A DNA stretch of 55,322 nt, filler included, from Squatina squatina (Eukaryota): the NCBI GenBank assembly GCA_031763465.1. It is 3 parts of 3 records of this genome, joined end to end, with 100 filler letters (N's around TTAATTAATTAA, not from the genome) between each part and the next. Parts side by side here need not be neighbours in the genome. Positions count along the whole stretch, not along the records: positions 41,139 to 55,322 come from JARFOE010000192.1; 2 more parts are not named here. One strand, written 5' to 3'. The position numbers were made by a program, and so were the translations under genes. The notes beneath the pieces are model-generated. The model was not told the DNA's origin. It ran no database searches and was given only the letters and a program-made list of their open reading frames with translations. Shown piece by piece: positions 42,036-55,322 of the stretch (position 1 is its first letter; every line of letters starts with the position of its first letter).

Positions 42036-42532
42036 TAAGGGACATCTCTATACAAAGAGAAACATTTTAATCTCATTTCCTCTTGTCAGAGACAAGCAGG
42101 CGGATCGAGCACAAAGGTTTGCATGGATTGCAGGCTTCCCCACGGCGCAGGGTGCCGTTGACTGCACGCACATTGCCTTGGGTGCGCCTTGTGTGAACTT
42201 GGCCATTTTCATGAACCAAAAGGGATTTCACTCCCTCAATGTGCAACTGGTGTGCAACGACAGTCAGTGCATCATGCAGGTGAATGCCCGTTATCCTGGC
42301 AGTAGTTTTGATTCCTTCATTCTGCAGCAGTCTTCTGTGCCACCAGTATTTGACCCACCACAGCAAGTCAAAGACTGACTACTGAGTAACAAGGACTATC
42401 CACTCATGACATAGCTCATGACTCCAGTCAGGAACTCACACACACATGCACAGCAGGCCTGCAATGACAGTCTTGCTGCCACAAGGAACATTATAGAGCA
42501 CACCATCAGCGTCCTCAAGCAATGCTTCTGCT
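42036..42532 (+). mobile_element. Decayed PIF/Harbinger (HARBI1-like) DDE transposase fragment
   Basis: FAWIAGFP..QGAVDCTHI...FMNQKGFHSLNVQLVC...VNARYPGS.FDSFIL...*LLSNKDYPL..*LMTP...ATRNIIEHTISVLKQ. In-frame stops, and the second catalytic Asp is changed. Confidence 0.9.
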
Positions 42533-44320
42533 ACCAGCACCTGCGAGGAGACTCTTGGTCTCTCTACCAGGAAACATCAAGACTTGTTTGACGAGAACGA
42601 CCATGTGATTCAGGAGCTGCTAAACCGCAAACGCAAGGCATCCCTGGACTGGAAGCACCGTCAAAGCTCGAGGGAAAGAAAACAGGTCTACAGACAAGCG
42701 AAGGCTGAGGTCCAACAAAAATCTCAGGACCTAAAGAATAGATGGTGGGTCGAAAGAGCGCAGGAGATCCAGCAACTCGCTGACAACAACGACATGCATG
42801 TATTCTTCAGCGCAGTCACCCAAGGACCTACCCCACTGAGAGCTAAGAACAGAGACCTGCTCATCAAGGACAGAGGGGCAGTCAGCGCCTGCTGGAAGGT
42901 GCACTTCGAGAAACTCCCCAACCAAAGCTCGGTGCTCGACGTCTGAGCCCTCAATTTCATCCCACAACACCCGACCCGCCACCACCTCAACACAATCCCT
43001 GCCATACACAAGGTCATAAAGGCCATCAGGCACCTGAAAAACAAGGCCTCCGGCGCAGACAGAATCCCTGCCGAAATACTCAAATACAGCGGTGAGGCAC
43101 TCCTGGCACAAATCCATGACCTTATCTCCCTCATTTGGGAGGAGGAGAGCATGCCAGGAGATCTCAGGGATGCCATAATCGTGACCATCTTCAAGAAAGG
43201 AGACAAGTCGGATTGCGGAAACTGCAGAGGGGTCTCCATGCTGTCCGCCACAGGGAAGGTCATCGCAAGACCCCTCCTCAATCGTCTCCTGCCAGTGGCT
43301 GAAGAGCTCCTCCCTGAGTCACAATGCAGTTTCCGCCCATCTAGGGGTACAAGGGACGTGATCTTCAGTGCACGCCAAATCCAAGAAAAGTGCAGGGAGC
43401 AGCATCAACCTCCATACATAGCCTTCTTTGACCTTACGAAGGCCTTCGACTCTGTCAACTGGGAGAGATTATGGAGTGTTTGGCTGCCCCCTAAAATTTG
43501 TCACCATCCTCCGCCTGCTTCAGGACGACATGCAAGCAGTGATTCTCACCAACGGCTCAACCACAGACCCAATTCAAGTGCATACTGGGTCAAGCAAGGC
43601 TGTGTCATCACACCAGTGCACTTCTCTATCTTCCTCTCTGCAACACTCCATCCCATTTCCATGAAGCTCCCCACTGGAGTTGAGCTAATCTACAGGACAA
43701 GTGGGAAACTCTTCAACCTCCGCCGCCTCCAGTCCAAATCCAAGATCACCCCGACCTCTGTCATTGAGCTGCAATATGCAGACAATGCCTGCGTGTGCGC
43801 ACACTAGGAGGCTGAGCTCCAATCCATCGTCAATTTATTCACTGAGGCTGGGCCTCACACTGAGCATCTGCAAGACAAAGGTCCTACACCAGCTTGCCCC
43901 AGCCACACACCACCAACTCTCAAATATCAAGATCCACGGCAAGCCCCTGGACAACATGGAACACTTCCCATATCTTAGGAGCCCACTCTCAGCAAGGGCA
44001 GACATAGATGACGAAATCCAACACTGTCTCCAGTGTGCCAGCACAGCCTTCGGTCGCCTGAGGAAGAAAGCGTTTGAAGACAATGACCTCAGACCCGGCA
44101 ACAAGCTCATGGTCAAAAGGGCAGCCGTGATACCTGCCCTCCTGTATGCATCGGAGACATGGTCACTGTACAGCAGACACCTCAAAGCACCGGAGAAATA
44201 CCACCAACGCTGCCTCTGCAAAATCGTGCAGATAAATGCCAATGTCAGCATCCTCTCTCAGGCCAACATCCCCAGCATCGAGGCACTGGTCACGCTCAAC
44301 CAACTGCGATGGGTGGGTCA
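42533..44320 (+). mobile_element. 5'-truncated, degenerate RTE-clade LINE reverse-transcriptase ORF (3' end in gap)
   Basis: KHQDLFDEND, RDAIIVTIFKKGDKSDCGNCRGVS, LPESQCSFR..RGTRD.IF..RQIQEKCREQ, AFFDLTKAFDSV, VKQGCV, LQYADN, FPYLRS, ALLYASETW, QLRWVG. Stops and frameshifts present. Confidence 0.93.
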
Positions 44321-46097
44321 NNNNNNNNNNNNNNNNNNNNNNNNNNNNNNNNNNNNNNNNNNNNNNNNNNNNNNNNNNNNNNNNNNNNNNNNNNNNNNNN
44401 NNNNNNNNNNNNNNNNNNNNATGTCTAAATCAAAGCACACAAGGGACCATTAATACATCTTTTAATGCTAAACAAATCTTTACTTGAAAATGTCTCACTT
44501 AAGAAATATTATACTGCCATCAAATTGTTACATAAATTTATCAAATTATTAATTTACAGGTAACTAATTAGACAATTATTATTTTCCTACCTATATGTGC
44601 ATTACTCATAGTGGTCACGTATATTTATGTATGAGGGTGTATGAGACTTTATGTGAGTATGCCTGTTCTGAAATTTGTGTATACTCAGGGGTTGATGTGA
44701 TAAAAGCAGAAGTATAACCAGAATCCCCAGGTCTTATCTGAACACAATACCACCTGACATCCCATGAAGTATTAATGTACTCTTTTTATTTTTGAAAAGA
44801 AAAGGCAGATCCGTAGGAAAAGAAATACCAAAATATGTTACCGTTGTGTAATATAAATTGAGCACATAATGCTAAGCACTGCCATCTCACACTGGAGCAA
44901 GACCATCATAAGCTGCTTTCCAACTGTCTCACTCATGAGTTTTTAAGCTGTTGCTTACTCATGGGATAAATGCAATAACATGACATCCTGTATGTGTTTT
45001 ACATCTGTAAGAACAGGAGTCTTGATTTGTAATTGTGTGTCCATTATTTAAAGATATATGTTTAGTATATATGATTTTATTTTTTTCTTGGTTTCTTTAC
45101 AGCTAATATTGAAAACCATTAATGTACATAACAAGCAGCTACCAAACCCCTTAGCCTTTCCTGCTCTCCCAGGAAAACCCACATGACAATATTAACTAGT
45201 GCAATACGACCATGAGAAAACAAGGCATGATTTAGTACAAATAAGGATACCTATTAAGAAGTGTATATCCAAACCTGTGAGCTCAGGAACAATTCCAAAA
45301 GGCATTTAGACAATGACTGTTTGTTTTTGTTTGAATTGTAACCTCATAATCTCCAGCAGTTAATGACAACCCTCATTCTAAAGCAGCAGGACTGCACAAT
45401 CACTGTTTGATTGATCACGACTGACTGAAATTGGCCTAGAAAAGCACACATGTCTGCATTTTTTCTCCTTGCATGCTGACTGTGATTCTTTGTAGCTTGC
45501 TTTGGACTGTACATGTAAGTCTGATTTCCTTCTAATTTGATTTTAGTAGCAACTGCCAAGTTTGCAGATAGAAAACTTGTGTGGAGGGTAAACTGGTTCG
45601 GCCAAATGGCCCGTTTCCATGTTGTAACTTCTATGTATTCCTATGGATTTTGAAAGCAGACAGAAATGTTCTAATAATTACCTGATTAGCACTTCTGTCT
45701 TGTTGATAGAATAGGTAAACATTCTAATTAATACTACCTGTCAGTCAGAGAATTTCCTCACCTTTATTTCAGTTATATTTTCAAATTAAGAAACAAATGA
45801 GTTGAATTTTGAAAGCATACAGCGAAACTGTAATTATCACTACTGTTCTGTTGATAGTAATTAGAATGTTTACATTTTCTTGCAATGAGAGAGAGACCGA
45901 AATATGCCTCCAGGAAGCAGGAATAAAGTGTGTGTACACATGTGGCAGTGTACAAGGCTGTGAGCGTGCTTTTGAGGCAGTGTGGGTGCGTAAATGTGGC
46001 AGTAAACGGTCAGAACAGGTATTGGAACAGGCTATCAGTACAGGTACTGGTGCGTTTCACTCACTCATTTCTTTCTGTATTTGTGTTAATTTGTCGG

Positions 46098-46228
46098 GAA
46101 ATGAGGCAGCAGAAAAAGACACTGAAGAAAACTCGTAAGTTTATGGTAGATGGTGTCGAGGTAAAAGTGACGACGTCAAAAATCGTTACCGATAATGACA
46201 AAAACAATGAAGAAATGAGGTACCTCAG
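46098..46228 (+). CDS. SLK: Internal exon of STE20-like kinase SLK (SLK/STK10 family), start of the C-terminal coiled-coil region; 5' boundary uncertain
   Basis: [44 protein letters not shown] closely matches [30 protein letters not shown]. Donor AG|gtaaga at 46229. Confidence 0.88.
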
Positions 46229-46991
46229 GTAAGAGACCGATCTCTGCTCATTTTTGCTGAATGCTAATAGTGACTTGTGCCAGTTTTGGGAAGTGTTTCA
46301 TAGGAGTCAATTTTGTGTTTGGAGCAAATGACTTTCTGATGAATTTCTAATCCTGGATTGGAATTATCCCTCCGTGAGGGTCAACATGAAATGGTGTTTG
46401 TGGCAGCATTTGAATTTCTAGTATTTTTATAACCTAGTGATTTCACTGTGGCTCCCATGAGCAAGCTTATCCACCGATATCAGGAAATTGTACCGTCCAA
46501 TAATCTGCCATTGCAGGCTTGTGTGACCTGAAGATTAATAATTTATTTCATTACTTCCAGAAATTTACTTCCTAGATTAAGGAAAGACCTGTGTTTAAAG
46601 AGCACCTCATCACCTCTCAGACGGGTTTCAGTGTTTCATGTACAGTGAACTAGTTTGAATTGTGGTGACCTTTCATTTACATAAATGCAATCTTATACTT
46701 ACAATGGATATTAAACTCAGACTGGAATTTTTCAAACTACAACTAATATCATTATAATGTAGTAAAAACTTAAGTCAAAAAAGTTATAAAAATACTGAGA
46801 GTACAGCATATTAGACAAAAATACAACAAGAAGCTCTAATGGGCCTGTTGCCCTTTTGTAAGAATATCCTCTGACATAAAAAGAGAGTTTCTGATACTTG
46901 TTGGAAAGAGTTCTACCTCTGAATAGCAAATGCTACCTGTTTTTATCTGCTCTCACTAGTTTCAGAACTGGCATATTGATTTGAAGCATAG

Positions 46992-47064
46992 AGAATTGGT
47001 TGGCAGACAGGAAGCAAAGAGTAGGAATAAACGGGTCCTTTTCAGAGTGGCAGGCAGTGACTAG
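46992..47064 (+). mobile_element. CR1 RT fragment at contig end
   Basis: NWLADRKQRVGINGSFSEWQAVTS. Confidence 0.75.
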
Positions 47065-47164
47065 NNNNNNNNNNNNNNNNNNNNNNNNNNNNNNNNNNNN
47101 NNNNNNNNNNNNNNNNNNNNNNNNNNNNNNNNNNNNNNNNNNNNNNNNNNNNNNNNNNNNNNNN

Positions 47165-47510
47165 CTGCTATTATCTGTTTACTACATTTCCAAGCTTTGT
47201 GACATCTGTAAACTTTGAAATCATGCTCTGTACACCCAAGTCCAGGTTATTAATATACATCAAAAAGAGCAGTGGTTCCAACCCCTGGGGAACCCCACTG
47301 TGCACTTCCTTCCAGTTTGAATAAAAACATTCACCACTAATATCTGCTTTCTGTCCCTCTGCCAATTTTGTATTCATGCTGACTCTGACAATTTAATCCC
47401 ATGGGTTTCAAATTTGCTCACAATTCTATTATGTGGTACTTTATCAAACACCTTTTGAAGGTCTATATACAAAACATTAACTGCACTATCCTCATCCACC
47501 CTCTCCGTTA
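47165..47510 (-). mobile_element. CR1 RT fragment
   Basis: VYIDLQKVFDKVPH upstream, and WKEVHSGVPQG.EPLLFL.YINNLD.GV...ISKFTD.TKLG. Confidence 0.8.
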
Positions 47511-47528
47511 TTTTAATCGACAAGCTCA

Positions 47529-47786
<258 letters not shown>

Positions 47787-47991
47787 TCAATGGACAAGCT
47801 CACAGCACAACATCTTTCAAGGAGCTAGGACACTGCTGCTATTTATCGGCACAACTGTCAACAACAGAATTTACAGCTGTCTATGTAAACAAACTGCTTA
47901 AATTGCCATTTTCTCTTCCAGTTTGGTGACAAACATCGTGAACATTTTTCTCAGCTTTAATATTTTAAACCATGTGCTTTCTCTTCTGTAG

Positions 47992-50900
47992 GGCGTCTAA
48001 GTGGCGTGTTTCATTATGATCAGCGGATTCGCTATTCACTTACTTTTCCTGCTGCTAAACTGGCCTGTGAGCAAGACTTTGGAGCTGTGGTGGCAACTAG
48101 GGATCAACTTCACAGCGCCTACCTTGCTGGGCTAGAGGAATGCAGAGCAGGTTGGATTTCATCAGGAGAAGTAGCTTATCCCAGGATACACAGAAACTGG
48201 AAATGTGGCCAAAACAGAATCGGCATTATATCATATGGAGTCAAAAAGAACCTGCTAGAAAAATGGGATGTGTATTGTTATAAAGTTGATGATGACTGCT
48301 CTGCTTATAATAAATCACTACAGTTGGAAGATAAAACTTCTAGCAGCAAATCAGTGAATCTGTTATTGGGCACAATACTACCTTCCTCATCGAAGAATGT
48401 TTCCAAGGAACAAGAAGTTGCTGAACCAGGTCTGACCCGGNNNNNNNNNNNNNNNNNNNNNNNNNNNNNNNNNNNNNNNNNNNNNNNNNNNNNNNNNNNN
48501 NNNNNNNNNNNNNNNNNNNNNNNNNNNNNNNNNNNNNNNNNNNNNNNNNNNNNNNNNNNNNNNNNNNNNNNNNNNNNNNNNNNNNNNNNNNNNNNNNNNN
48601 NNNNNNNNNNNNNNNNNNNNNNNNNNNNNNNNNNNNNNNNNNNNNNNNNNNNNNNNNNNNNNNNNNNNNNNNNNNNNNNNNNNNNNNNNNNNNNNNNNNN
48701 NNNNNNNNNNNNNNNNNNNNNNNNNNNNNNNNNNNNNNNNNNNNNNNNNNNNNNNNNNNNNNNNNNNNNNNNNNNNNNNNNNNNNNNNNNNNNNNNNNNN
48801 NNNNNNNNNNNNNNNNNNNNNNNNNNNNNNNNNNNNNNNNNNNNNNNNNNNNNNNNNNNNNNNNNNNNNNNNNNNNNNNNNNNNNNNNNNNNNNNNNNNN
48901 NNNNNNNNNNNNNNNNNNNNNNNNNNNNNNNNNNNNNNNNNNNNNNNNNNNNNNNNNNNNNNNNNNNNNNNNNNNNNNNNNNNNNNNNNNNNNNNNNNNN
49001 NNNNNNNNNNNNNNNNNNNNNNNNNNNNNNNNNNNNNNNNNNNNNNNNNNNNNNNNNNNNNNNNNNNNNNNNNNNNNNNNNNNNNNNNNNNNNNNNNNNN
49101 NNNNNNNNNNNNNNNNNNNNNNNNNNNNNNNNNNNNNNNNNNNNNNNNNNNNNNNNNNNNNNNNNNNNNNNNNNNNNNNNNNNNTTGACATCCACAGTAT
49201 TTACCAAGGAAATATTAAAACATTCTTCATCAGTTTTTGAAGATCAGCAGGAGTTTATTGGGGTTACTATCTCGACAGTGACTCTTGAATCTGCTAAACA
49301 TGTAGCCAACTCTGTGATTACAACTCAAACAGTGCAACCAAACATCCATTTGGTGACAAGAAAACAAATGTCTTCATCTCAAATATCACCAGTTATAGGA
49401 GTCTCAACAGAAGCTGATGATAAATTAAGAAGACCAGTGACAAATACATTTGAAACTGAGATAACTTCATCTGTCATTCACACTGTAGCACCAGGGCTAC
49501 CCTTAGAGGATGCTATTATTGACACAAAGGATCCACATCATCAATCTGCCTTAAAACTCAAAAGGAACTCTTTGAACGGATTAGGACAGTTCTCTTCATC
49601 AGATTGGAATCAGGAGTGGAAAAATGAACATGTTGATGCAGTTAACAATACACATTCAGTGTTGAACCTGGAGAAAACTGTTGCAGATATGAGAAAAAGT
49701 GACAAATCAGAATTGTCTNNNNNNNNNNGAGGAATATTATACTAAAGGGGAAGTCGGTCTACTAGATACAGTTAATACAAAAGGAACAAAGCTTTTGGGA
49801 AAGGTTGGTAAGGATAGTACAGCCCAGCAACTGACACCCACTACACATCTTCTGCCAGTTTCACGAAATATAGTGTCAATAACAGACAATGCTGCGCTGT
49901 CGGAGATGACCACTACAGGGGATAATTTTCACCCGAAGACACTTAAAATAGAGGACATTTCAAATCCAACTGGAAAGAAACAGGACCATCAAGGTACAGT
50001 TCTGCTTGATTCAACCAGGAGAGGTGATACAACCCTTTCAGGAACAGAGAATAGTTATAAAGCTGTGGCGAACTATCTGCAGTTATATGGTACAGGTCTT
50101 CCACAAAGTGTAGATACAAAAATACAGCAGGCTACATCTGGTCTGGATGAAGTAGCTTTTCTAGGGATATCCACTGCAGGCATAAATGTAGAGCTTGTTA
50201 CAGTCCAAGCAAAAGGAGTTTCACAAGCAGCAGTTTCCAGCATAGACCAACTGCAGAAAGTAAATATAAAATCAAACCTCAGTGTAAATAACAATGAAGA
50301 AGAATCATTTGGATCCAGAGTGAATGATGGGATCAAGTTACATACACCTATTAAACACAATCCAGAATCACAAGCAACAGTTAGTACAGAAAGAAATGCA
50401 CAAGTAGATGCAACCAGTGAAATAAATACAGTCCAACCAATTGCATACAGTATAGATCACACATCTGAATCAGTGCTAACAGTAGGTAGTCTAGTTCTGT
50501 CCATTATAACCACACCCTTAAGCAAATTTCAGCAATCCACAGACAGTGAAAAGATGGAATCTAGCATATCAAGTGGAGAAAGAACATTTCAACCAAACGC
50601 TTCCAGTGGAGATACAAGAAAAATGCAAGGGAATTTGGCCCATCAAAAAGAAAGCCTAAACAAAGATAGTCTTCTTCAGACACCCATACACTCCCTAGGC
50701 GACGTACAACAATATCTCACCTCTAATGCAGAAGATAAAGCTGTCAGTGTAACAACCAGTAAGAATTATTTACATATGATCAGAAACGATGGCAAAGTTC
50801 AGNNNNNNNNNNTCAGCCTTTAGTAGACAAAGGTACAAGTACACTCCAGGCAGTTACAACTATTGCTGACATCTTAGAGCCATCTTTCAGACTTGGTAAA

Positions 50901-51279
50901 AAGAGTATGGCACAGCAAATCTCTTCTGAAGATATTACTGGAGATATTTCAGGCACATCCATTGGAGCACACAGAGACCAGCCTGTAACAGGCACAGAAG
51001 GGACTTCATTACCGAAAGAGGAAACTGGCCAATATTCTGTGACACCTTTGACAGGTGTGGAGATATTTTCCTCATTGGATGTTACAAATGTTGCCAACAT
51101 CACAGATATTGTCACTGAGTTTTTGTCTTCAGCTGCATCATCCACAAGCCCTGTTTCTGTGCAAACACCTGCAGCAAATGGGTCATTAAAGTTTCATCTG
51201 CTGGACACACTATCCTCTCCTTTAATGCCACCAAAAGGAGACAATGTACTTCCATCTACTTCCTCATTTGTGACATTAG
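47992..51279 (+). CDS. Large coding exon of an unrecognised mosaic gene: Link (hyaluronan-binding-type) module (~48003-48284) followed by a long Ser/Thr-rich mucin/proteoglycan-like stalk; interrupted by N gaps
   Basis: Acceptor tgctttctcttctgtAG at 47990-47991. Translation GVFHYDQRIRYSLTFPAAKLACEQ...GLEECRAGW...VAYPR...CG...GIISYG...WDVYCYK has the four Link cysteines and CxAGW/YP/WDxYCY motifs. Open S/T-rich reading continues in every sequenced block (49185-49718, 49729-50802, 50813-51279). Donor G|gtaagt at 51280. Confidence 0.9.
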
Positions 51280-51379
51280 GTAAGTGAAGGTTTACCTAAA
51301 TATAAATAAAATCATTAAGCGTATTAGTTTTTAATTATAAAGAACCTGACCAAGGTTGGAGCAATAGATCTCACAGCAC

Positions 51380-51753
51380 ATAGAATCACAGAGGTTTATG
51401 GCATGGAAGGAGGCCATTCAACCCATTGTGTTTGTTGCCGGCCAAAAAAGAGCTATCTAGCCTAACCCACTTTCCAGCTCTTGGTCCATAGCCTTGTAGG
51501 TTATGGCAATTCAAGTGCATATCCAAATAATTTTGATATGTGATGAGAGTTTCTGCATCTAGTGCCTTTTCAGGTAGTGACTTCCAGACCCCTACCATCC
51601 TCTGGGTGAAAAATATTCTCAACTCTCCTCTAATCCTTCTACCAATTACCTCAAATCTACGCCCCCTGATTATTGACCTCTCTGCTGAGGGAAATAGGTC
51701 CTTCCTATCCATTCTATCTAGGCCCCTCATAATTTTATACACCTCAATTAAAT
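51380..51753 (-). mobile_element. CR1-clade LINE 3' end (different subfamily), intronic
   Basis: YKIMRGLDRMDRKDLFP...FFTQRMVGVWKSLP on the minus strand, ending aatggcctccttcc...tgtgattctatg. Confidence 0.85.
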
Positions 51754-51853
51754 NNNNNNNNNNNNNNNNNNNNNNNNNNNNNNNNNNNNNNNNNNNNNNN
51801 NNNNNNNNNNNNNNNNNNNNNNNNNNNNNNNNNNNNNNNNNNNNNNNNNNNNN

Positions 51854-52398
51854 TTGTGTACAATTTTGATCTCCTTACCTAAGGAAGGATATACTTGCCA
51901 TAGAGGGAGTGCAACGAAGGTTCACGAGACTGATTCCTGGGATGGGAGGGATTGTCCTATGAGGAGAGATTAGTTGTCTAGGCCTATATTCTCCAGAGTT
52001 TAGAAGAATGAGAGCTGATCTCATTGGAACCTACAGATTTCTTACAGGTAGATGCAGGGAGGATGTTTCCCTTGACTGGGGAGTCCAGAACAATGGGTCA
52101 CAGTCTCAGAATAAGGGGTTGGCCATTTAGGACTGAGATGAGAAATTTCTTCATTCAGAGGGTAGTGAATCTTTGGAATTCTCTACCCCAAAGGGCTGTG
52201 GAAGCTCGGTCGTTGAGCATATTCAAGACAGAGATCGATATATTTTTGAATATTAAGGGTATCAAGGGATATGGGAATAGTGCAGGAAAGTGGAATTGAG
52301 GTAGAAGATTAGCCATGATCTCATTGAATGGTGGAGCAGGCTTGAGGGGCCAAATGGACTACTCCTGCTCCTATTTCTTATGTTCTTATGTTCTTATG
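51854..52398 (+). mobile_element. CR1-clade (HER1-like) LINE 3' end with (TTCTTATG)n tail, intronic
   Basis: RMFPL.GESRT.GHSLRIRG.PFRTEMRNFF.QRVVNLWNSLP, followed by 3' UTR ...ctactcctgctcctatttcttatgttcttatgttcttatg. Confidence 0.9.
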
Positions 52399-52402
52399 TT
52401 AG

Positions 52403-52628
52403 ATTCATGTGGTGGCATGATGAGACAAACCAAAGGAAGATTTCAGACACCACACTATCCACAGTCCTACCCGAGTGACATGGACTGCACCTGGGAGATT
52501 GAAGCTCCTCCTGGATATCTCATCCGTTTGAATTTTACTTCTTTGTTTATCGAAGAACACAGAACATGCAAGTATGATTATGTGGTTGTTTATGATGGCA
52601 AAGGGCCCAGCAAAGTGGAAATGGGCAG
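52403..52628 (+). CDS. Mosaic gene exon: N-terminal part of CUB domain
   Basis: (D)SCGGMMRQTKGRFQTPHYPQSYPSDMDCTWEIEAPPGYLIRLNFTSLFIEEHRTCKYDYVVVYDG...MGR fits the CUB pattern CGG..F.SP.YP..YP...C.W.I...C.YDYV.VYDG. AG at 52401-52402, phase 1 matching the upstream exon (G|AT=Asp). Donor AG|gtaatt at 52629. Confidence 0.93.
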
Positions 52629-53387
52629 GTAATTATGAATTATAAACACAGAGGTCTATANNNNNNNNNNNNNNNNNNNNNNNNNNNNNNNNNNNNNNNN
52701 NNNNNNNNNNNNNNNNNNNNNNNNNNNNNNNNNNNNNNNNNNNNNNNNNNNNNNNNNNNNNNNNNNNNNNNNNNNNNNNNNNNNNNNNNNNNNNNNNNNN
52801 NNNNNNNNNNNNNNNNNNNNNNNNNNNNNNNNNNNNNNNNNNNNNNNNNNNNNNNNNNNNNNNNNNNNNNNNNNNNNNNNNNNNNNNNNNNNNNNNNNNN
52901 NNNNNNNNNNNNNNNNNNNNNNNNNNNNNNNNNNNNNNNNNNNNNNNNNNNNNNNNNNNNNNNNNNNNNNNNNNNNNNNNNNNNNNNNNNNNNNNNNNNN
53001 NNNNNNNNNNNNNNNNNNNNNNNNNNNNNNNNNNNNNNNNNNNNNNNNNNNNNNNNNNNNNNNNNNNNNNNNNNNNNNNNNNNNNNNNNNNNNNNNNNNN
53101 NNNNNNNNNNNNNNNNNNNNNNNNNNNNNNNNNNNNNNNNNNNNNNNNNNNNNNNNNNNNNNNNNNNNNNNNNNNNNNNNNNNNNNNNNNNNNNNNNNNN
53201 NNNNNNNNNNNNNNNNNNNNNNNNNNNNNNNNNNNNNNNNNNNNNNNNNNNNNNNNNNNNNNNNNNNNNNNNNNNNNNNNNNNNNNNNNNNNNNNNNNNN
53301 NNNNNNNNNNNNNNNNNNNNNNNNNNNNNNNNNNNNNNNNNNNNNNNNNNNNNNNNNNNNNNNNNNNNNNNNNNNNNNNNNNNNNNN

Positions 53388-53511
53388 GGATCTGAGATGC
53401 CACCACAGCTCCAGGGATCTTCCAATACAATGAGCATTACAATGAGGTCTGACTCCTCTATGGAACTAGAGGGATTTTCAGCTCAATTCAGCACTTTTCA
53501 AATTCCAGCAG
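53388..53511 (+). CDS. Mosaic gene exon: C-terminal part of CUB domain (5' end in gap)
   Basis: GSEMPPQLQGSSNTMSITMRSDSSMELEGFSAQF matches the CUB C-terminus (G..P....SS.N.M.I.F.SD.S....GF.A.F). Donor G|gtaaat at 53512. Confidence 0.9.
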
Positions 53512-53687
53512 GTAAATGTTATTTTCATGGACTTTAAGAAACTTTTTGTTTGTTTGTTGAAGTACAAATTGTAGAATTTGGAGGTAATCTTTTTTATCCC
53601 ATATTTAGAAGCTGCCAACTAATTTAGTGGGACCTGAAGTTGCTGACATGCTCATTTTCTTGCTCTCTCTGTCTCTACTATCTTTAG

Positions 53688-53847
53688 GTTATATCCGTCT
53701 GGTTGGAGGAAAGAATATATATAATGGTGCAATAGAAATTTTGTCTGGTGGGCACTGGGGAGGAATATGTGCTAAACGGTGGACCAATAGAGATGCCATG
53801 GTAGTGTGCCATCAGCTAGGCTTCAGTGGACCAGCTTTAGCTACAAG
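53688..53847 (+). CDS. Mosaic gene exon: first half of a scavenger-receptor cysteine-rich (SRCR) domain
   Basis: (G)YIRLVGGKNIYNGAIEILSGGHWGGICAKRWTNRDAMVVCHQLGF matches SRCR IRLVGG...G.VE...G.WG.IC...W...DA.VVC.QLG. Pyrimidine-rich acceptor ending 53687, phase 1 matching the previous exon. Donor AG|gtaaat at 53848. Confidence 0.93.
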
Positions 53848-54994
53848 GTAAATAAGATAGATGAGTGTTGAGTGCTGTGTGTGAAAGGCCTGGATCATTG
53901 TTTGCACTTGCAGAAATAATATTGTAGACCTTGCAGTGTAATGTTTGCGAGATGTTAGCTCCAAATTAGTTATTTCAGACACATATATGTTTGCTTCCAA
54001 CACACATAGGAACCAATACACCATACCACCCCTACCTTCAGAGCTGTTATCATCTCAGAAGTTTGCGGACTGAGATGGAATATATTAAAATAGATTGCAT
54101 TTTTATACCAAAGCTGAGTGGGGCCTAAATTCACCATTGTTGTGCCTGTTTTCCAGGTGTGAAACATATGCAAAGAAAACCAAATTAGCTGATCTGAACG
54201 GGCATTCAGGCCACTGCTAAATTGGTCAGAATATTTTTTAGCAGCCCTGGTGGCTGCCTAAAATGGACGCAAGCTTCGTATATTGAAATGAGGCCCCCGT
54301 CTCCATTTCAGACCTGGACTGTTAAATTTGTTTACCTCAATTGGAGCTTGCGATCCAGACTTATCAGTGGGCCNNNNNNNNNNNNNNNNNNNNNNNNNNN
54401 NNNNNNNNNNNNNNNNNNNNNNNNNNNNNNNNNNNNNNNNNNNNNNNNNNNNNNNNNNNNNNNNNNNNNNNNNAACTTATCTAGTACTTTTATGCACAAA
54501 TTTCAGTTTTGCTTTGGTCTCTATATATGATCATATCATGAGTGAAGATATATGATTTTGCAAAGTTAGTCTTAGAATGGTTCAGCAGATGAGGCCATGT
54601 ATATTAAGAGCAGCTGAAGTCTAAAGTGAAATTGACCAAACGCTGTTAAAATATCATTTTATGAAAACAGCATTGTGAGAAAAATGTACTTATTTTGTCT
54701 GTGCTGAATTTTTTGTGATGTGTGCTAGAAACAACATGTAAGGGCTTAGCACCCACTGTCTCACAAAGGATTTCTCAACAGAAAAAGGCACATGCCGGAT
54801 TGTAGAGAAAATAAGGATCACTTGCATGACTGCACCTGAGAAAATATCTCGCATAAAAACCTAAGGCATGATAATTACAAACGGACCCTACCAAACCATG
54901 AGCTGAACACTAAATTATAATGTTAGTTTATGTTTTTAGATAAAACAGTAGGATGAAAACATATTCCTCACATCTTACTTTGAACTTGTCACAG

Positions 54995-55129
54995 TTATGG
55001 AGTCCTGTGCAGTCTTAAAGAGTGCAGGCATTCTAGAGTCTGGGGTCTTCACCATAGATCCTGATGGTGTGGACGGTGGAGTAGATCCTTTCCCTGTGGA
55101 ATGTGATATGGTGTCTGATTGTGCAACAG
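54995..55129 (+). CDS. Exon encoding the start of a fibrinogen-like (CNTNAP/COLFI-type) domain, probably of the same mosaic gene; absent from the ORF track
   Basis: cttgtcacAG|TT ATG GAG... translates xMESCAVLKSAGILESGVFTIDPDGVDGGVDPFPVECDMVSDCAT(G), matching SC......G...SG.Y.IDPDG....PF.V.CDM. Donor G|gttagt at 55130. 135 bp, phase 1-1. Confidence 0.85.
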
Positions 55130-55322
55130 GTTAGTAGTCCATAGTGACCAGTTTTTATTTAATATTTTTAACTTTTGGCGGCAAGCATGTGGAGCATTCT
55201 TCAACAAAAGCATATCTTCTGTGTTTCATAAATTTTATTTAAAAGTTGTTATGCCTTGTTGAAGTGGTAAGTAGGAAACTACTCTTAGCATAGAATGAGT
55301 TTGGTGATCAGGTTAATTTTGC

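Follow-up and report, generated by a model that had tools for sequence, protein, structure and literature searches.

Positions 47992-55129 of a 55,322-nucleotide stretch of DNA from the shark Squatina squatina (GCA_031763465.1; the whole stretch is called the window here) hold five plus-strand exons of one gene, which encode a Link module, a long Ser/Thr-rich stalk, a CUB domain, the first half of an SRCR domain and the start of a C-terminal module to which modelling assigns the fold of fibrillar-collagen C-propeptides (COLFI). The exons lie within positions 41,139-55,322 of the window, which come from JARFOE010000192.1. The gene they belong to is real and unnamed, a vertebrate Link-module gene whose domain order is unseen in named proteins. 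Gene models of the orthologues are already present in public databases; new is that they are recognised as a single family, with its range and anatomy. We lean, if only slightly, towards the view that the predicted protein would act as a two-ended tether of the extracellular matrix, comparable to the lecticans.

Exons, splicing and assembly

All five exons end in a GT donor (5/5), and four are preceded by an AG acceptor, the acceptor of the third falling within Ns. Canonical splice sites on one strand had been reported in a preliminary description of this DNA, together with coding blocks free of stop codons, and both hold: the sequenced stalk, 740 residues in the window, contains 0 stops. The reading frame shifts only at two gaps of 10 Ns (49719-49728 and 50803-50812). 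Orthologues match the window colinearly, also across these gaps. DNA contigs from two related species cover 47940-51435 or more in one piece and fill a gap of 744 Ns with 753 nucleotides. Since the orthologues are colinear and the contigs run through, the 10-N gaps at which the frame shifts are placeholders for gap length. A pseudogene was rejected because there are no stops and the frame changes at gaps only.

Splices were observed in contigs of runs X4 and X6, two samples from one study of another species, whose RNA nature was guessed by the tool. One contig of each run joins 51279 to 52403 (GT..AG). In one X4 contig, 52628 is followed by 10 further letters and then by 53391, corresponding to a junction at ~53381, and the same contig joins 53511 to 53688 (GT..AG). 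The match of one X4 contig begins exactly at 47992, with 242 other letters ahead of it, as a spliced first exon would give, and an X4 match ends at 53848, followed by 78 letters absent from the window. The five exons are one real, spliced gene, and because contigs of a related species show three splices of the GT..AG type, the domain order is not the result of a misjoin. The two junctions to which compatible phases were assigned earlier, 51279-52403 and 53511-53688, are both spliced in these contigs.

The junction from 53847 to 54995, listed in the preliminary description, was seen in none of the contigs, and an in-frame splice between the two positions is impossible, with the exon end at 53847 in phase 2 and the start at 54995 in phase 1. 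Residues 1292-1337 of the orthologue P0001 (46 amino acids, the second half of the SRCR domain) have no match anywhere in the window. The phases and the 46 unmatched residues together require an exon of ~140 nucleotides between 53847 and 54995, which probably lies within the gap at 54374-54473. Exon 1 gave no convincing match within the window, and the rest of the first C-terminal module and its second copy are located past the window end.

By similarity the window is shark DNA: identity of the Link exon is 80-89% with proteins of sharks, 70-73% with those of rays and chimaera and 55-68% with those of bony vertebrates; the stalk is colinear with shark orthologues at 48-78% identity. The last exon (54995-55129), for which Pfam gave no match, is 80-91% identical to module 1 of sharks and rays and 57-63% to module 2. 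A search with the Link exon returned 28 longer proteins among 548 candidates, 26 of which list Link, CUB and SRCR together, and a rescan of 18 proteins found this combination in 16, with Link only in the remaining two.

A patchwork assembly, in which unrelated exons have been placed in a row, is an alternative with some surface appeal, as the window is a draft with many gaps, broken into 44 pieces of 895 bases in the median, and carries stray exons of unrelated genes. However, orthologous models of many species have all domains in the same order on contigs of 30-1400 Mb and are colinear with the window, and for exons 1-4 the patchwork is refuted by the spliced contigs of a related species. We therefore regard it as wholly improbable. 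The misjoin that the preliminary description had named as its own possible refutation is likewise contradicted by orthologous models on chromosome-scale contigs, which carry all domains. Coordinates are collected in Table 1.

Table 1. Features of the Link-module gene, in window positions.
Feature	Position	Strand	Remarks
Exon with Link module and Ser/Thr-rich stalk, phase 1/phase 1	47992..51279	+	AG and GT ends; three N gaps in stalk
Link module	~48003-48281	+	Pfam Xlink E=2e-29, 102 bits (cut-off 27)
Cys flanking Link	48297-48299	+	within the 47992..51279 exon
Ser/Thr-rich stalk	~48300-51279	+	24% Ser plus Thr, no stop
CUB exon a	52403..52628	+	Pfam CUB 1-73/110, E=1e-21; positions matching TSG-6 Glu183 and Asp191
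CUB exon b	~53381..53511	+	Pfam CUB 77-110/110, E=7e-4; visible from 53388, first ~7 bases in N gap
SRCR exon a, encoding the first half of an SRCR with six cysteines	53688..53847	+	Pfam SRCR 1-45/100, E=6e-12; AG/GT
Gap of 100 Ns, likely site of missing ~140-nucleotide SRCR exon b	54374..54473	.	inference from phases and orthologues
First exon of first module with putative COLFI fold (Caspr type)	54995..55129	+	identity to shark and ray modules

Anatomy of the encoded protein

In orthologue models the protein consists of a signal peptide, the Link module, the Ser/Thr stalk, CUB, SRCR and two tandem C-terminal modules of ~200 residues, with long forms of ~1200-1800 amino acids. The order proposed earlier is thus that of one gene, while the final module, described as single and fibrinogen-like, occurs in two copies and has the COLFI fold in our models. 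N-terminal hydrophobic stretches score 1.6-2.6 (19-residue mean, 10 proteins), and outside the N-terminus no membrane segment was found in 10/10 proteins (19-residue hydrophobic mean at most 1.84; 1.9 was not reached). The protein is predicted to be secreted. Database models include predicted isoforms with a shortened stalk (P0005) or without the whole Link-stalk exon (P0226), and the Lampetra model lacks the SRCR domain and module copy 1. No collagen repeat (Gly-X-Y triple helix) was found in the orthologues.

The orthologous stalks contain 23-28% Ser plus Thr, are nearly Cys-free and measure 377-1031 amino acids in the long forms. N-glycosylation sequons are abundant in the stalk of most species, and in the predicted model the predicted local distance difference test (pLDDT) score of the stalk stays below 50. 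Ser-Gly pairs number 5 in the window stalk versus 5.5 expected, and among 23 orthologue stalks only that of chimaera is clearly above chance (13 versus 5.8). Since Ser-Gly counts are at chance in nearly all stalks, the suggestion that the protein is a proteoglycan finds no support.

Among solved structures, the closest match of the Link sequence is TSG-6 (76 bits), followed by CD44 (50) and aggrecan link 1 (49). The Link model aligns with LYVE-1 including the flanks (residues 22-131, Z 11.4), and the stretches 'CR.G' and 'PRIH' are common to the Link module and CD44. In PMC3937638, the hyaluronan contacts of TSG-6 are given as Lys11, Tyr12, His45, Tyr59, Lys63, Tyr78, Arg81, Cys47-Cys68 and Phe70. 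We mapped these positions onto 32 orthologues through an alignment of the Link modules with TSG-6. For the contacts listed there, Tyr12, Tyr59 and Tyr78 are kept, Lys11 is Arg and Arg81 is Arg or Lys, each in 32/32 orthologues. The cysteines of the two disulfides of a Link domain are there, with Cys47, Cys68 and Cys92 present in 32/32 and the first Cys observed as well. In 25/32 orthologues the module is flanked by a Cys pair, which may form an additional disulfide like that of CD44 and LYVE-1; chimaera and lamprey have neither residue, and five models whose ends are odd or cut have only one of the two.

The CUB domain belongs to the calcium type by its sequence. All three calcium ligands of the TSG-6 CUB named in PMC4661386 (Glu183, Asp191 and Asp232) are kept with identical spacing in 30/30 orthologous CUBs, 2 of the 32 models being without a CUB. 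In a fold search the TSG-6 CUB came top (Z 17.7), with neuropilin-1 and PCPE-1 within 1. By sequence, it was last of 33 matches for CUB exon a; compared with representatives at 50%, the same exon had multi-CUB proteins in its best 150 matches, none above 44% identity. A single SRCR stretch follows, and no ZP domain was found in the 18 scanned proteins.

These data bear on the possibility that the protein is a TSG-6-like factor of inflammation or ovulation, in which Link and calcium-type CUB would engage inter-alpha-inhibitor heavy chains and modify hyaluronan. Such a role would agree with the best Link match, with the head of the fold list and with the conserved positions of Glu183 and Tyr47 (= Tyr12); the nearest Atlas clusters are TSG-6 at 0.77, under the 0.9 bar. 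However, 400-1000 residues mostly separate Link from CUB, and the TSG-6 CUB ranks at the bottom of the sequence matches. The ester-forming residue of TSG-6 is Ser28, according to PMC4661386, and at the corresponding position (8 residues before the Link start, ungapped offset) Ser occurs in 0/32 orthologues. We consider a TSG-6-like role quite unlikely.

The two C-terminal modules are 55% identical (111/201) and have 12 Cys each. We folded a single coelacanth module with a 76-row alignment (pLDDT 94). Foldseek matched it to the procollagen C-propeptide with E 5e-7, versus 1e-3 for fibrinogen. In a fold comparison, COLFI gave Z 14.6 with a root mean square deviation of 4.0 and 179/201 residues aligned, as the sole chain of 48,161 at Z of at least 8, and fibrinogen beta gave Z 5.4 with 95 residues aligned. 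Identity to fibrillar-collagen C-propeptides is ~15-18%, and Pfam COLFI (PF01410) did not match the coelacanth module. Pfam Fibrinogen_C covers the module at profile positions ~2-54 of 221 only, and in a profile search of solved structures only the first ~50 module residues matched, to collagen and fibrinogen chains; a single-sequence search of solved structures gave no match to the tandem module. On the modelled structure, the C-terminal module is of the COLFI fold and of the Caspr type. A ficolin-like (fibrinogen-related) recognition domain was rejected, given this fold and the partial Fibrinogen_C coverage. A three-copy complex prediction of the coelacanth module, folded without an alignment, scored 0.00 and is no evidence either way.

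Caspr and neurexin IV carry the same module type (31-39% identity; predicted template modelling (TM) score 0.91 to a neurexin-4 cluster). Their 'fibrinogen-like' module (P0056, P0060-P0064) is therefore probably of the COLFI fold too; none of the Caspr chains matched in the PDB searches with the module. The Caspr-type module would thereby be placed in the COLFI fold, and its soluble tandem form could be expressed and solved. We also noted a large unnamed family with Ig and COLFI-like modules from corals and environmental assemblies (P0270-P0367, P0038-P0040), ~50% identical to the vertebrate module; some of the coral proteins have a collagen helix and Ig domains ahead of it.

In a phylogeny built on 63 modules of 39 selected proteins, 28/28 family copies form one clade (94/99), apart from the Caspr clade, and the subclades of copy 1 (97/99) and copy 2 (99/92) broadly follow species. 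The single Lampetra module groups with copy 2. The duplication may predate lampreys, with the Lampetra model having neither SRCR nor copy 1, or that model may be incomplete. From shark to frog the C-terminal modules are ~60% or more identical.

The tree and the fold also speak to a second alternative, a secreted pattern-recognition protein of mucosa or plasma, DMBT1- or ficolin-like, that would bind microbes via SRCR and fibrinogen-type modules while Link anchors it in mucus. One SRCR, one CUB and a stalk of mucin-like composition would suit such a protein, as would the strong expansion of the module family beside Ig domains in unnamed and coral proteins. However, the C-terminal module is not fibrinogen-related by fold or Pfam coverage, and the Lampetra model has no SRCR. 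Recognition families are expanded and fast-changing, in contrast to the conserved orthologue set found here, with its high identity from shark to frog and a tree that follows species. Pattern recognition thus seems unlikely, and for the innate-immune role suggested earlier there is nothing beyond the presence of one SRCR.

Distribution, naming and surroundings of the gene

Members were found in more than 50 named species, comprising lampreys, sharks, rays, chimaera, bichirs, sturgeons, paddlefish, gars and bowfins, and further elopomorph teleosts, coelacanth, salamanders and frogs. The gene is a conserved Link-module member at least as old as the split between lampreys and jawed vertebrates, in a set that is usually counted from mammals. 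The searches were word-based and covered annotated protein sets rather than genomes. Among 28 and 61 matches, and the best 120 of 747, no member was seen from amniotes, Xenopus, caecilians, lungfish or hagfish, nor from osteoglossomorphs or other non-elopomorph teleosts; two Caspr-like rows among the matches, teleost or unnamed, are non-members. The absence from mammals claimed earlier is thus matched in protein sets, where the gap is wider and takes in amniotes, Xenopus and non-elopomorph teleosts.

An alignment of ~3,600 non-redundant Link domains is provided in the supplement of PMC12383584, whose source table includes entries from zebrafish, chicken, Xenopus, human, caecilian and arowana. 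In this supplement, searched by term, each of two signature motifs was found 12 times, together in 13 sequences, 11 of them named and all of these from groups already known to have the gene; looser Link motifs revealed no new member among the first 8 places each. Loss of the gene in amniotes is likely but unproven, as the searches were word-based and made on annotated proteins.

All database names of the family are automatic and conflicting (uncharacterized, versican-like, neurexin-4-like, TSG6, DMBT1). Orthology to TSG-6, versican, DMBT1 or neurexin-4 was rejected, these being automatic names only, and no orthologue is a named gene, in line with the earlier statement that the protein is uncharacterised. 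Among literature listings and the openings of abstracts, outside subscription journals and most supplements, no description of the family was found. The seeming absence from mouse, chick, zebrafish and Xenopus would explain the lack of a name. Since the gene is present in axolotl, sterlet, catshark and lamprey, knock-out and localisation are feasible. In fused database models (P0033, P0233) the C-terminal part of the gene is joined to a FASTKD3-like protein (bichir) or to one named OTULIN (sterlet), which offers a lead on synteny.

The range invites a third alternative, in which the protein is a structural part of one specialised extracellular coat or gel found in aquatic vertebrates (egg jelly, lateral-line cupula or gelatinous tissue of larvae) and polymerises via the COLFI-like modules, with hyaluronan binding secondary. 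Members were found only in lampreys, cartilaginous fishes, non-teleost ray-fins, elopomorphs, coelacanth and amphibians, and the glycosylated stalk and paired C-terminal modules would suit a gel former. However, no member was found in zebrafish or Xenopus, both of which possess lateral lines and egg coats, and the range does not match that of electroreception, since gar, bowfin and frogs are without ampullary organs and have the gene. Electroreception was rejected on this ground as the trait behind the range. The tissue search of the literature found nothing: six gene or protein identifiers occur in no full text searched, the catshark LOC119966240 is absent from the readable supplements of PMC13188829 and PMC13200729, and the family words are absent from the readable supplements of PMC10982350. 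A gel or coat component is, in our estimate, improbable.

Upstream of the gene, a spliced-looking coiled-coil exon of the MAP7 family (47586-47769, minus strand; ensconsin E=1e-7) ends ~220 bases short of the Link exon. Two related species have 47500-47907 on one contig and the sequence from 47940 on another, each continuing into other sequence; because the contigs split there, the adjacency of the MAP7-like and Link exons may reflect a chimeric join or a deletion near 47908-47939. An isolated exon at 39353-39565 (minus) has a weak Alg9-like mannosyltransferase match (E=4e-4) and presumably resembles PIGZ. Another, at ~46098-46229 (plus), ends in a GT donor and has no Pfam or PDB match; we take it to resemble the coiled-coil region of SLK/STK10 kinases. 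These MAP7-like, Alg9-like and SLK/STK10-like stray exons suggest a patchwork scaffold on the upstream side of the gene. A high-copy repeat of very high depth lies in the intron that follows the stalk exon (51390-52400). Across this stretch, 42730-44450 and 38100-38900 there are reading frames that resemble pieces of reverse transcriptase of long interspersed nuclear elements (LINE).

Proposed function and comparison with known systems

We hypothesize that the protein is a lectican-like, two-ended matrix tether that stands outside the lectican family and links hyaluronan to matrix proteins or to itself, a reading to which we give a little more than even weight. The Link groove would bind hyaluronan as in TSG-6, and the stalk would serve as a disordered spacer, O- and N-glycosylated and under no constraint on its length. 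At the far end, calcium-type CUB, SRCR and the two COLFI-like modules would make up a head for docking to matrix proteins or to further copies of the protein. A protein network would in this way hold hyaluronan chains at a distance while being linked to them, as in lecticans with their G1, spacer and G3, though with different building blocks, and isoforms with a short stalk or lacking the Link-stalk exon would modulate or abolish tethering.

Several observations weigh against the tether. At the TSG-6 contacts listed in PMC3937638, His45 is replaced in 32/32 orthologues (by Glu in 30/32), Phe70 is kept in just 2/32 and Lys63 is variable; therefore the affinity may be low, or the ligand may be another glycosaminoglycan. 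The stalk shows no Ser-Gly enrichment and differs in this from lectican spacers. The coiled-coil stalk of procollagen C-propeptides acts in trimer formation, and the present module is without it, the match starting at residue 37 of 5k31. A shared fold shows no function, and Caspr proteins carry the same module type. The 887-residue model reached a predicted TM score (pTM) of 0.45 and therefore says nothing on domain packing. The splice contigs, from one study, were called RNA only by the tool's guess. Of the earlier view of a hyaladherin with a fibrinogen-type module, a Link module with hyaluronan-contact residues, part of which are kept, is supported, while the C-terminal module is COLFI-like in the models.

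We speculate further that the protein is an ancestral vertebrate hyaluronan cross-linker, which would assemble via its COLFI-like modules into a multivalent scaffold, build watery, hyaluronan-rich gels in aquatic vertebrates and have been lost separately in amniotes, most teleosts and Xenopus. This is a long shot, and if true it would represent a third way to organise hyaluronan, beside lecticans and the TSG-6/heavy chain system.

TSG-6 (TNFAIP6) is the closest solved Link by sequence and, like the family, has one Link followed by one calcium-type CUB, with five Link contact positions and three CUB calcium ligands in common. In contrast to TSG-6, which has ~270 amino acids, the shark-family protein has a long stalk between Link and CUB and adds an SRCR and two COLFI-like modules; of the TSG-6 residues, Ser28 and His45 are missing and Phe70 is largely gone.

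The lecticans (aggrecan, versican, neurocan and brevican) are secreted and have the layout predicted here, in which a Link end and a globular end are separated by a long Ser/Thr-rich spacer that a single large exon encodes, and some family models are automatically named 'versican core protein-like'. In lecticans, G1 consists of an Ig domain and tandem Links, G3 of EGF, C-type lectin and CCP domains, and the spacer is Ser-Gly enriched. None of these Ig, tandem Link, EGF, C-type lectin or CCP domains was found in 18/18 scanned proteins. The family has instead one Link, no Ser-Gly enrichment and a far end of CUB, SRCR and two COLFI-like modules.

CD44 and LYVE-1 share with the family the succession of Link and stalk, and the Cys pair that flanks the Link in 25/32 orthologues may form a disulfide like theirs, but the family has no transmembrane segment and carries C-terminal domains after the stalk. 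Caspr (CNTNAP) and neurexin IV have the same module type, and split family models are automatically named 'neurexin-4-like'; however, the family modules form a separate clade and come as two tandem C-terminal copies in a protein without F5/8, LamG, EGF or membrane segment. Fibrillar collagens resemble the family in the COLFI fold that modelling places at its C-terminus, but the family has no triple helix, 12 Cys per module and low identity. DMBT1, which consists of an SRCR array and a C-terminal ZP domain, is comparable in combining SRCR and CUB in a protein predicted here to be secreted, and one entry carries DMBT1 as its automatic name; the family differs in having a single SRCR after the CUB, no ZP domain and a Link module.

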